Assembly (NCBI RefSeq): GCF_009931435.1 | Contig: NZ_CP043414.1 | Origin: Escherichia coli | GTDB lineage: Bacteria > Pseudomonadota > Gammaproteobacteria > Enterobacterales > Enterobacteriaceae | Reading direction: 5' to 3' (one strand) | DNA length: 64,000 bases | In this document: positions 625 through 3,600 of the stretch, one piece after another | How positions within the stretch are numbered: the first letter of the stretch is position 1 | Layout of the letters: each line of letters begins with the position of its first letter | The notes under the pieces: generated by a model | Told to the model about the DNA's origin: nothing | Seen by the model: the letters and a program-made list of their open reading frames with translations, nothing else | Database searches by the model: none | Program-made: the position numbers and the translations under genes

Positions 625-3600
625 ATGAATATGCGGATTATCTTTCTACGCAAGGAGTATTTATCTTTACTCCCGTCAATGATTGCATCTCTTTTCTCTG
701 TTAACAGTGTTGCGGAGGTTTTGGATTCATGCCAGGGATATGATATCAAAGCGAGTTGTCAGGCCAGCAGGCAAAGCCTTTCAGGCATTACGCAGGACTG
801 GAGCATCGCCAATGGGCAATGGGTGATTTTTTCGGGTATGGCCAATAATGCTAGCGGTGGCGCCGTATTTTTGCAACAAGGAGCGGAGTTTTCTCTATCG
901 CCAGAAAATGAAACTGGAATGACTCTGTTTGCCAATAATACTGTCTCAGGAGAATATAATAATGGCGGGGCAATATTTGCTAAAGAAAACTCAACGCTGA
1001 ATCTTACTGATGTTATTTTTTCCGGTAACGTCGCAGGCGGCTATGGTGGCGCAATCTATTCTTCTGGTACTAATGATACTGGTGCCGTCGATTTACGTGT
1101 CACTAACACCATGTTTATCAATAACATCGCTAATGATGGCAAAGGTGGCGCAATTTATACCATCAATAATGATGTCTATTTAAGTGATGATGTTTTTAAT
1201 AATAACCAGGCATATACATCAACAAGTTACAGTGATGGCGATGGTGGTGCAATCGATGTCACCGATAATAATAGCGATATCACGCATCCGTCAGGTTTCA
1301 CAATAATAAATAACACCGCATTTACAAATAACACTGCCGAAGGTTATGGCGGGGCAATTTATACCAATAGCGTGACGGCTCCCTATCTTATTGATATTTC
1401 TGTTGATGACAGCTACAGCCAGAACGGCGGTGTGTTAATCGATGAGAACAATTGCGCAGCAGGCTATGGGGATGGTCCTTCCACTGCGGCGGGCGGCTTT
1501 ATGTATCTCGGCTTAAGTGAAGTTACCTTTGATATTGCTGACGGAAAAACGCTGGTTATCGGCAATACAGAGAATGATGGAGCTGTTGACTCTATTGCTG
1601 GTACCGGGTTGATCACCAAAACAGGTTCCGGCGATCTGGTACTTAATGCAGATAACAATGACTTTACTGGTGAGATGCAGATTGAAAACGGTGAAGTTAC
1701 CCTGGGTCGCAGCAACTCCCTGATGAATGTCGGAGATAATCATTGCCAGGACGATCCGCAAGACTGCTACGGTCTGACGATAGGGAGTATTGATAAGTAC
1801 CAGAATCAGGCAGAGCTAAATGTTGGCTCCACCCAACAAACCTTTGTGCACGCATTGACGGGCTTTCAGAATGGCACTTTAAATATCGATGCTGGTGGCA
1901 ATGTTACTGTTAATCAAGGCAGTTTTGCTGGCACCATCGAAGGTGCTGGTCAGCTCACCATTGCGCAAAACGGCAGCTACGTGCTGGCAGGGGCGCAGTC
2001 GATGGCGCTAACTGGCGATATAGTCGTTGATGATGGCGCGGTGCTTACGCTAGAAGGCGACGCGGCAGATCTCGCCGCTCTCCAGGACGAGCCGCAGTCG
2101 ATCGTGTTAAACGGCGGTGTGCTCGATCTCTCTGATTTCTCCACCTGGCAGAGCGGCACATCATACAACGATGGCCTTGAAGTCAGCGGCAGCAGCGGAA
2201 CGGTTATCGGCAGTCAGGATGTGGTAGATCTTGCAGGCGGAAACGATATGCATATCGGCGGCGACGGGAAAGATGGCGTCTACGTGGTGGTCGATGCGGG
2301 TGATGGGCAGGTCAGCCTGGCAAATGACAATCAATACCTCGGCACAACGCAAATTGCTTCCGGTACGCTGGTGGTGAGTGACAACTCGCAGCTTGGAGAT
2401 ACCCACTATAACCGCCAGGTTATCTTTACCGATAATCAACAAGAAAGCGTGATGGAGATTACTGCCAATGTCGATACTCGCTCTACAACGGTTGAGCATG
2501 GGCGTGATATTGAAATGCGCGCCGACGGTGAAGTGGCAGTTGATGCGGGGGTAGACACGCAGTGGGGCGCACTGATGGCTGACAGCAGCGGGCAGCATCA
2601 GGATGAGGGTAGCACATTGACTAAAACGGGTGCTGGCACCCTGGAGCTGACCGCCAGCGGTACTACGCAGTCTGCGGTACGTGTTGAAGAAGGTACCCTG
2701 AAAGGCGATGTTGCGGATATTTTTCCTTATGCTTCGTCGCTGTGGATTGGTGACGGAGCAACGTTCGAGACTGGCGCAGATCAGGATATCCAGTCTATTG
2801 ATGCTACTTCCAGCGGCACTATCGACATCAGTGATGGCACCGTTTTGCGCCTGACGAGTCAGGATACTTCCGCCGCACTGGATGCCTCGCTGTTTAACGG
2901 CGACGGTACGTTGGTGAATGCCACCGATGGCGTGACGTTGACAGGCGAGCTTAATACTAACCTGGAAACTGACAGCCTGACCTATCTTTCCGATGTGACG
3001 GTTAATGGTGATCTAACCAATATGTCCGGTACAGTCAGTCTGCAAAATGGCGTCGCTGGCGATACGCTCACGGTAAACGGTGATTACACCGGCGGCGGTA
3101 CGTTGTTTCTCGACAGCGAATTAAACGGCGATGACTCGGTAAGCGACCAACTGGTGTTGAACGGCAATACCTCGGGTAACACGACCGTGGTGGTTAACCC
3201 CATTACCGGCACTGGTGAACCGACTTCTACAGGTATTAAAGTGGTTGATTTCACTGCTGATCCCACGCAATTTCAAAACAATGCGCTGTTTAGTCTTGCG
3301 GGCAGCGGCTACGTTAATATGGGAGCGTATGACTACACGCTGGTGGAAGATAACAACGACTGGTATCTGCGATCGCAAGAAGTCACTCCGACGCCGCCGC
3401 CCGATCCGGACCCGACTCCAGATCCTGATCCCACGCCGGATCCTGATCCAACACCCGACCCGGCTCCAGCCCCTACGCCTGCCTACCAGCCGGTGCTGAA
3501 CGCCAAAGTTGGTGGCTATCTCAATAACCTACGTGCGGCAAATCAGGCATTTGTGATGGAGCGACGCGATCACGCTGGTGGCGATGGTCAGACGCTGAAT

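Follow-up and report, generated by a model that had tools for sequence, protein, structure and literature searches.

A length-variable, proline-rich tandem repeat in the spacer of the Escherichia coli autotransporter YfaL

The 64,000 nt stretch of Escherichia coli DNA analyzed here (the window) contains, at positions 625–4389, an ORF that is yfaL and encodes an AIDA-I-type autotransporter. A region of this gene was matched in 5,419 of 5,426 complete E. coli genomes; among the matches listed, the product was annotated as "AIDA-I family autotransporter adhesin YfaL/EhaC", with a single entry described as a generic autotransporter beta-barrel protein. The copy from the window shows 99.9% identity to the annotated yfaL of strain H9Ecoli and of 35 other genomes. 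It also occupies the same chromosomal position as in annotated genomes, as indicated by a window ORF at 5398–8025 that matches annotated gyrA; in strain SMN197SH3, yfaL is followed by ubiG and gyrA. The features of the gene that are relevant here are the following:

625–4389, + strand: yfaL CDS, an ORF of 1254 codons (ORF list and translation); the RefSeq start is two codons further 3′
3010–3372, + strand: autochaperone or pertactin-like C-terminal end of the passenger, aa 796–916 (PF18883, PF03212), with the conserved end ...YDYTLVEDNNDWYLRS
3382–3483, + strand: proline-rich (Pro-X)n spacer of 34 codons, aa 920–953, peptide VTPTPPPDPDPTPDPDPTPDPDPTPDPAPAPTPA (translation); the length-variable site
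3403–3456, + strand: three head-to-tail units of 18 nt, each encoding DPDPTP, with sequence GAYCCNGAYCCNACNCC plus N (Tandem Repeats Finder and pattern matches)
3421–3431 and 3439–3449, + strand: longest exact direct repeat, 11 nt, GATCCTGATCC (repeat search within the tract)
3457–3474, + strand: degenerate fourth unit, GAC CCG GCT CCA GCC CCT, encoding DPAPAP (allele comparison)
3502–3546, + strand: predicted pore alpha-helix, aa 960–974 (AlphaFold2 helix, residues 171–185 of a 465-aa query)
3601–4320, + strand: beta-barrel translocator, aa 993–1232 (PF03797, E = 2e-31; 12-strand barrel in AlphaFold2, with high pLDDT)

The deduced product starts with a putative signal peptide, judged by eye (MNMRIIFLRKEYLSLLPSMIASLFSVNSVA), and contains the Pfam domains PATR, Chlam_PMP, AC_1 (PF18883, aa 796–906), Pertactin (PF03212, aa 813–916) and the autotransporter beta-domain. 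The closest solved structure is the AIDA-I transport unit (4MEE), which aligns with the autochaperone end, the helix and the barrel of YfaL (E = 7e-35): the autochaperone end pairs with residues 29–137 of 4MEE, as well as with the IcsA autochaperone structures 3ML3 and 5KE1, and the region of the predicted pore helix aligns from residue 149 onward. With a barrel, a preceding helix, an autochaperone and orthology to yfaL/EhaC, YfaL is a classical (type Va) AIDA-I-type autotransporter.

The proline-rich tract is inserted after the last rung of the autochaperone domain and ahead of the predicted pore helix and the beta-barrel. The initial annotation had described a tandem PDPT-encoding repeat at 3391–3480, in a linker between the YfaL passenger and the beta-barrel; this interval is inside the tract that we delimit at 3382–3483, the repeat is borne out by three in-register units and a Tandem Repeats Finder array, and its location is one on which Pfam, the 4MEE alignment and AlphaFold2 agree. 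The tract is predicted to be unstructured, since AlphaFold2 models a coil with pLDDT below 50 over most of aa 920–952, followed by the helix at aa 960–974 and the 12-strand barrel. Alignment to 4MEE holds on both sides of it, with around 11 residues from the motif WYLTSH to the helix in AIDA-I versus around 42 in YfaL; the alignment thus identifies the Pro-rich tract, which is absent from AIDA-I, as an insertion relative to this structure. Distant homologs, with 30–36% identity, carry Pro-X tracts of around 12–50 aa at the same position.

By position, as deduced from Pfam, the 4MEE alignment and AlphaFold2, the tract can be likened to the proline-rich domain of TibA (residues 627–677), which separates the junction region from the membrane-embedded domain (PMC3835316); the TibA domain comprises around 50 aa versus 20–38 aa in YfaL. 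From the predicted structure we infer that the tract forms an extended, polyproline-II-like tether, for which simple arithmetic, at 3.1 Å per residue, gives a span of roughly 6–12 nm for 20–38 aa. It is plausible that changes in spacer length would alter the stand-off of the passenger from the outer membrane. Alternating Pro-X sequences, such as the (EP)n(KP)n of TonB and the hinge of OmpA, are thought to be extended rods that span a fixed distance, although these belong to unrelated proteins and are periplasmic, whereas the YfaL spacer is extracellular.

At the nucleotide level, Tandem Repeats Finder reported a single array within the tract (3398–3449; period of 18, 2.9 copies, 79% matches, score of 62), and the pattern GAYCCNGAYCCNACNCC has three in-register matches, at 3403, 3421 and 3439. 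By chance, 0.10 matches to this pattern are expected per 64 kb, and none of 100 shuffles contained three or more. Nevertheless, the purity of the DNA repeat does not exceed what the peptide repeat requires, because a repeat of at least 11 nt also arises in 53% of synonymous-codon resamplings of the same peptide (p = 0.53). Therefore, selection for the Pro-X peptide is enough to explain the existence of the repeat, and mutability need not play any part. Likewise, a recent homogenization of the units at the DNA level was rejected: resampling gives equally long repeats, and the unit-specific synonymous differences are common to several alleles. A clustering of GATC (Dam) sites as a designed feature was also set aside, being judged a consequence of GAT-CCN codons; GAT accounts for five of the seven Asp codons in the tract, a proportion that is not unusual for the codon usage of E. 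coli.

The length of the tract varies among strains. A survey of around 5,400 complete E. coli genomes yielded nine tract lengths (20, 24, 26, 28, 30, 32, 34, 36 and 38 aa), four of them common and five rare, and all differences were multiples of 6 nt, that is, in-frame steps of two amino acids. In three evenly spaced samples (n = 40, 60, and 60) of the 5,419 matching genomes, the pooled counts were 103 for 32 aa, 33 for 26 aa, 13 for 34 aa, 6 for 24 aa, and 1 each for 36 and 28 aa. The 28 sequences that we tabulated (27 complete genomes plus the window) contain 20 distinct peptide alleles, and SMN197SH3, read as a 29th genome, has again the 20-aa allele. A second variable spot of the tract is the degenerate fourth unit, which is replaced in other alleles by PEPT, PAPAPT, PAPDPT or PIPA. 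The Pro-X register is kept in all 29 complete-genome alleles read, with no odd-codon indels and no frameshift in the tract. Conversely, the remainder of the protein hardly changes in size: the annotated CDS length minus the tract is 1218–1220 aa in all the genomes compared, and the 500 nt flanks on each side are gap-free in 17 sequences despite a divergence of up to around 12%. Essentially all the length variation of YfaL is thus confined to a single spacer of 60–114 nt.

Individual gains and losses can be recognized by comparing alleles with closely related flanks, for which mismatches are given per 450 nt upstream and per 450 nt downstream of the tract. In CFS3246, the K-12 allele has gained an exact second copy of GATCCTGATCCCACGCCG (+18 nt; 0 and 2 mismatches), the duplicated stretch being the one between the GATCCTGATCC direct repeats of the K-12-type allele, and in KUN2017-0933 the ST131 allele has lost 12 nt between CCCGACCC repeats (0 and 0 mismatches), each of these two variants being represented by one assembly. 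UMNF18 and five other porcine ETEC genomes have the K-12 allele minus GATCCT (−6 nt; 0 and 1 mismatches). The linker from strain 042 is an MRSN352231-type allele minus the 18 nt lying between the GATCCTGATCC direct repeats and, with more diverged flanks, the 20-aa allele (SMN197SH3 and an NCTC strain) differs from a B1-type 26-aa allele by the loss of one 18-nt unit. In total we inferred ten or more indel events, every one of them a multiple of 6 nt. Unit-sized indels bounded by short direct repeats on near-identical flanks have the signature of replication slippage, and the 11-nt GATCCTGATCC pair is most likely its substrate in this tract. It had also been proposed that the linker varies in length, by slipped-strand changes that stay in frame; the comparison across genomes agrees, yielding nine classes that span 20–38 aa instead of the invariant linker that had been named as the contrary outcome, with differences that are all multiples of 6 nt and unit-sized gains and losses between direct repeats on identical or near-identical flanks, although their rate is low.

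This low rate is seen in the stability of the tract within clones. The 45 genomes that share 99% or more identity with the window all have the same tract span. Likewise, a 356-nt K-12 query matched 1,927 genomes at 99% identity or more, and an ST131 query 566; these K-12-like and ST131-like genomes are without an indel in the tract because this level of identity rules out indels of 6 nt or more, presuming that BLAST puts a 6-nt gap inside one gapped alignment. At most 41 genomes can hold K-12-like (or MRSN-type) alleles shortened by 6–18 nt or lengthened by 18 nt. With units beyond chance expectation, differences in whole sub-units and events on near-identical haplotypes, the tract is an in-frame VNTR-like repeat, but a weak one, which changes slowly and is not hypermutable.

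Together, the best account of these observations, and one that is very probably correct, is a (Pro-Asp/Thr)n spacer whose length is altered by rare slippage between microhomologies and is then stably inherited within clones. The presence of CCN at every second codon, with mostly GAY or ACN in the others, creates a 6-nt periodic GAYCCN microhomology and an 18-nt higher-order unit; replication misalignment, or microhomology-mediated deletion or duplication, between short direct repeats could then add or remove 6, 12, 18 or 24 nt, and the reading frame and the Pro-X register would survive each change of length. Such events are rare: synonymous differences separate the units, and no perfect repeat exceeds 11 nt. 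Alleles are therefore stable inside clones while the species holds nine length classes. The tract is therefore an ordinary slow repeat that reveals no new mechanism, and its importance is modest.

Whether these lengths matter to the cell is a separate question, and the chances are evenly balanced that they do not, with the tract being a tolerant low-complexity spacer that drifts without phenotypic consequence, its polymorphism reflecting mutation and hitch-hiking and not a tuning of reach. Nine lengths coexist, four of them commonly, in a region that is predicted to be disordered and that ranges from around 12 to around 50 residues in homologs, with almost none in AIDA-I; additionally, the phenotypes described for K-12 YfaL were obtained under forced constitutive expression (PMC3764049). 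However, the 29 complete-genome alleles read have kept the Pro-X register, without odd-codon indels or in-tract frameshifts, and yfaL as a whole has been scored as positively selected (PMC9110714). The kept register and frame suggest that there is at least purifying selection on the character of the spacer.

Homologous recombination among old, diverged yfaL alleles could also generate differences in length in a mosaic gene, without any slippage inside the repeat, and this is possible but rather unlikely as the explanation for them. The gene is indeed strongly mosaic: the yfaL region is 80–90% identical in 5,148 genomes, while identity in the neighboring gyrA is 95% or higher across all matching genomes; the flanks can be discordant, as in 2020CK-00188, which has 99% identity to the window upstream of the tract and 90% downstream; and the window itself shifts from H9Ecoli-like to 2020CK-00188-like past about nt 3800–4000. 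Part of the allele distribution therefore consists of recombined old alleles and not of new slippage products. In contrast, several variants reside on flanks with only 0–2 mismatches per 900 nt to the parental allele, from which their sole difference is an exact unit between direct repeats, and the breakpoints were mapped to the barrel region instead of the tract. The tract is likewise unsupported as a preferred recombination junction, because comparisons of the window with its relatives placed the switches near nt 3800 and 3950–4000, in the barrel, with scattered blocks of divergence.

A comparison with pertactin raises a further alternative. The R1 (GGxxP) and R2 (PQP) regions of Bordetella pertactin consist, as in YfaL, of tandem proline-rich repeats within a classical autotransporter passenger, and in both proteins the repeat number varies between alleles and changes slowly, in pertactin also between species; YfaL even has a Pfam Pertactin match just upstream of the tract. 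[quoted passage not shown] Nonetheless, the motif and the unit size are different and there is no sequence homology inside the repeat; moreover, the pertactin passenger is cleaved from its barrel, and vaccine-driven selection has been linked to pertactin alone. As proposed for the pertactin repeats, whose numbers vary among alleles over a slow timescale (PMC8931430), the YfaL tract might be an exposed, immunodominant epitope in which changes are selected for immune escape. The tract is exposed, acidic, repetitive and polymorphic, and the report of positive selection on yfaL (PMC9110714) would fit; but antigenic variation is improbable here, considering that most of the variation consists of length changes inside a single motif family and not of new epitopes, and that the same alleles occur in very different hosts and sources.

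Two further ideas are more conjectural. One, which we regard as a long shot, is that spacer length is not neutral but matched, in each lineage, to how thick the surface glycans (O-antigen or capsule) are, exposing or shielding the passenger; if so, slow slippage in the tract would be a way for E. coli lineages to retune adhesin exposure after serotype switches. More speculative still, the 6–9 acid-labile Asp-Pro bonds could make the tether a site for passenger release at low pH.

Finally, a contingency or phase-variation locus, in which hypermutability of the repeat would turn YfaL on and off or often change its length within a clone, might be suspected from the presence of tandem repeats in the gene of a surface adhesin, from draft contigs, those of S. 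sonnei among them, that sometimes terminate within the tract, and from a few frameshifted translations through it in the automated run assemblies P0032, P0036, P0038 and P0067, but it is extremely improbable and is contradicted by the impurity of the repeat (units that differ synonymously, no perfect repeat longer than 11 nt and no long homogeneous tract) and by the invariance of the window lineage and of the K-12-like and ST131-like genomes; the lengths are, besides, all multiples of 6 nt and frameshifted forms are limited to those unverified run assemblies.

In its organization, the array resembles the coding VNTRs of MLVA-type typing schemes, with short head-to-tail units, in-frame differences among strains and whole-unit changes between direct repeats, but it is short and impure, with 3–4 units that carry synonymous differences; unlike MLVA-type loci, it is invariant within clones and would resolve lineages, not outbreaks. 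A literature search found no paper linking yfaL with tandem repeats, VNTRs or proline-rich regions. The length of the tract could serve as a cheap lineage marker. YfaL is already in use as a scaffold for surface display, and the natural allelic series from 20 to 38 aa is usable for testing tether length against autotransporter display. With regard to sequence collections, a word-indexed protein search retrieved mostly contig-end fragments and not full-length alleles, and short-read assemblies can break inside the yfaL tract.

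Reading of the region 3200–3700 and translation of the ORF across it showed that the PDPT-encoding repeat placed at 3391–3480 by the initial annotation is present, contained within a Pro-rich tract of yfaL that reads ...DWYLRSQE-VTPTPPPDPDPTPDPDPTPDPDPTPDPAPAPTPA-YQPVLNAKVGGYLNN... and is spanned by a sole long ORF (625–4389, + strand). This ORF begins (MNMRIIFL..., 625–633) two codons 5′ of the RefSeq yfaL start (MRIIFL...) and has 1254 codons, versus 1252 aa in the close relative H9Ecoli. The features of the gene product are as follows:

nt 3382–3483 (aa 920–953), + strand: Pro-rich tract (translation)
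YfaL: PATR and Chlam_PMP repeats (Pfam)
aa 796–906: AC_1 autochaperone domain (Pfam)
aa 813–916: Pertactin domain (Pfam)
aa 993–1232: autotransporter beta-domain (Pfam)

A 701-nt region round the tract had a match in 5,419 of 5,426 complete E. coli genomes; the matches listed were all inside a CDS annotated as AIDA-I family autotransporter adhesin YfaL/EhaC, bar one generic autotransporter beta-barrel entry. Among solved structures, the AIDA-I transport unit 4MEE is the closest; it aligns to YfaL on both sides of the tract, and the spacing from the WYLTSH motif to the helix is ~11 residues in 4MEE versus ~42 in YfaL; the tract is therefore an insertion relative to AIDA-I. In an AlphaFold2 model of aa 790–1254 (18-row alignment, mean pLDDT 78), the beta-strands end at ...DWYLR and are followed by coil, with pLDDT below 50 over most of aa 920–952, by a helix (aa 960–974) and by a confident 12-strand barrel. 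The structural alignment, Pfam and the model thus agree with the earlier placing of the tract as the passenger-barrel linker; more exactly, it follows the autochaperone cap and precedes the pore helix.

Tandem Repeats Finder detected one array only within 2500–4500, at 3398–3449 (period 18, 2.9 copies, score 62), and the previously proposed unit GAYCCNGAYCCNACNCC occurs exactly in register at 3403, 3421 and 3439 (chance expectation, 0.10 matches per 64 kb; at least three matches in 0 of 100 shuffles). The longest exact repeat in the tract, whose GC content is 70%, is the 11-nt GATCCTGATCC (copies at 3421 and 3439). Resampling of synonymous codons for the same peptide gave a repeat of at least 11 nt in 53% of trials; the DNA repeat is thus no better than the peptide demands, the repetition is primarily at the peptide level, and by this comparison the allele of the window shows no sign of recent duplication or homogenisation. 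Positions 3403–3448 contain five GATC (Dam/SeqA) sites in 46 nt, the densest GATC cluster of the 64-kb window, which also yields two BamHI sites (GGATCC); the cluster is probably a side effect of GAT-CCN codon use, GAT accounting for five of the seven Asp codons.

The tract was read, counting from V to A, in 29 complete genomes plus the window. There were 20 distinct peptide alleles among 28 tabulated sequences, and the last genome read, SMN197SH3, repeats the 20-aa allele.

Length of the YfaL Pro-rich tract in E. coli (examples).
20 aa: SMN197SH3; an NCTC strain
24 aa: Z142-7, MS14384
26 aa: O111:H8, O157:H16, UTME-3
28 aa: 042, KUN2017-0933
30 aa: UMNF18
32 aa: K-12, O157:H7, ST131
34 aa: window, MRSN352231, A22
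36 aa: 2020CK-00188, AST85
38 aa: CFS3246

The linker is thus not invariant across strains (20–38 aa), and all the differences are multiples of 6 nt, bearing out the predicted in-frame length variation. Only the tract varies in this way: no gap was needed to align the 500 nt on either side of it in 17 sequences diverging by up to ~12%, and without the tract the annotated CDS came to 1218, 1219 or 1220 aa for each genome. To estimate frequencies, match spans were compared in three samples (n = 40, 60 and 60) drawn at even spacing from the 5,419 matching genomes. In the pooled 160, tracts were of 32 aa (103 genomes), 26 aa (33), 34 aa (13), 24 aa (6), 36 aa (1) and 28 aa (1); the other three, the final row of each sample, were broken or partial alignments.

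Several alleles correspond to a parent allele plus or minus an exact sub-unit located between short direct repeats, with identical or nearly identical flanks (mismatches given per 450 nt upstream/downstream). CFS3246, recovered with a synthetic "+18" query, carries the K-12 allele with an exact second copy of GATCCTGATCCCACGCCG (0/2); UMNF18 and five further porcine ETEC genomes have the K-12 allele minus GATCCT (0/1), a shared loss that shows inheritance within the lineage; and KUN2017-0933 has the ST131 allele with 12 nt missing between two copies of CCCGACCC (0/0). The linker of strain 042 is that of the MRSN352231-type allele without the predicted 18-nt unit, and the 20-aa allele is what remains of the B1-type 26-aa allele when one of its two almost perfect 18-nt copies is lost. 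A larger in-frame deletion of 168 nt (56 aa; equivalent to window ~3262–3435) in VTB97022v (locus L005, NZ_CP178670.1) fuses an upstream ADPT (GATCCCACGC) to identical sequence within the repeat (DPT); with it the autochaperone domain loses its conserved end (...YDYTLVEDNNDWYLRS), and the CDS is 1194 aa; this allele is likely non-functional. In all, at least ten events can be deduced, every one a multiple of 6 nt. Such unit-sized gains and losses bounded by direct repeats are as expected from the slippage initially proposed, and could be produced by replication slippage or by microhomology-mediated deletion or duplication.

Change is nevertheless slow, which qualifies the original interpretation while leaving linker, length variation and slippage supported. 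All 45 genomes with at least 99% identity to the window over the 701 nt have an identical span. Identity of at least 99% was also found in 1,927 genomes to a 356-nt K-12 query and in 566 to the equivalent ST131 query; these lack any indel, because a 6-nt gap would lower identity to 98.3%. The identity band for K-12-like (or MRSN-type) alleles with −6 to −18 nt or +18 nt contained at most 41 genomes. Additionally, unit-specific synonymous differences are retained across alleles. The rate of length change is therefore low and the tract is an impure, slowly mutating in-frame VNTR; a contingency locus was rejected in view of the clonal invariance of the span, the low rate and the synonymous differences kept by each unit.

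The yfaL region (3100–3800) is only 80–90% identical to the window in 5,148 of 5,419 genomes, and in the adjacent gyrA (compared region, 5398–6400) identity is at least 95% in all matching genomes; the top gyrA matches are different strains from the top yfaL matches. Similarity upstream and downstream of the tract is discordant. The window differs from H9Ecoli and other closest relatives at 4 positions in 2500–3800 versus 51 in 3803–4376, being H9Ecoli-like to ~nt 3800 and, from ~nt 4000 onward, identical to strain 2020CK-00188, which points to a recombination tract within the barrel-coding part (3800–4389). In these comparisons, breakpoints between the window and its relatives showed no focus on the repeat. 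The gene yfaL is unusually diverged and mosaic, and much of the allele distribution therefore reflects exchange of old alleles; length changes also arise in place, since some variants sit on identical flanks.

Alternating Pro-X tracts are usually extended, polyproline-II-like rods. At 3.1 Å per residue, a tract of 20–38 aa would span ~6–12 nm, with a maximal difference of ~5.6 nm, and we infer that spacer length might influence adhesion. Distant homologues (30–36% identity) have Pro-X tracts of ~12–50 aa at the same position and AIDA-I has none, which argues for a tolerant spacer. Constitutive expression of YfaL in K-12 increases biofilm formation (PMC3764049), and yfaL was scored as positively selected (PMC9110714). 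[quoted passage not shown] At the population level, the tract behaves much like the R1/R2 proline-rich repeats of pertactin, whose copy number varies among alleles on a slow timescale, R2 being disordered in the crystal structure (PMC8931430). Variation of this kind is well known; our literature search found no paper tying yfaL to tandem repeats, VNTR or proline-rich regions, and this case itself seems undescribed.

In some strains yfaL is inactivated: in AST85 (locus L018) it is annotated without its C-terminus, with an IS3-family transposase gene directly downstream, and other strains carry frameshifts just 5′ of the linker (protein entries P0078, with 25 members, P0101, P0103 and P0107). 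Dozens of draft contigs of Shigella sonnei and E. coli (protein entries P0024–P0119, loci L023–L027) stop at varying points within the linker, and partner contigs begin just past it (P0012, 303 members; P0013, 519 members); coverage drop-out in this GC-rich tract, a graph tangle or heterogeneity are candidate causes. S. sonnei has a PPNPNPT variant, and its fragments start near one common internal point of the passenger (...ADGKTLVIGNTEN...). Lastly, a 624-aa protein from an ENA metagenome contig (P0027) has a YfaL-like passenger (78% identity over aa 460–929) whose similarity ends within the Pro-rich tract, where an unrelated low-complexity region rich in Asn takes over. This may reflect an exchange of modules at the spacer in a different Enterobacterales lineage.
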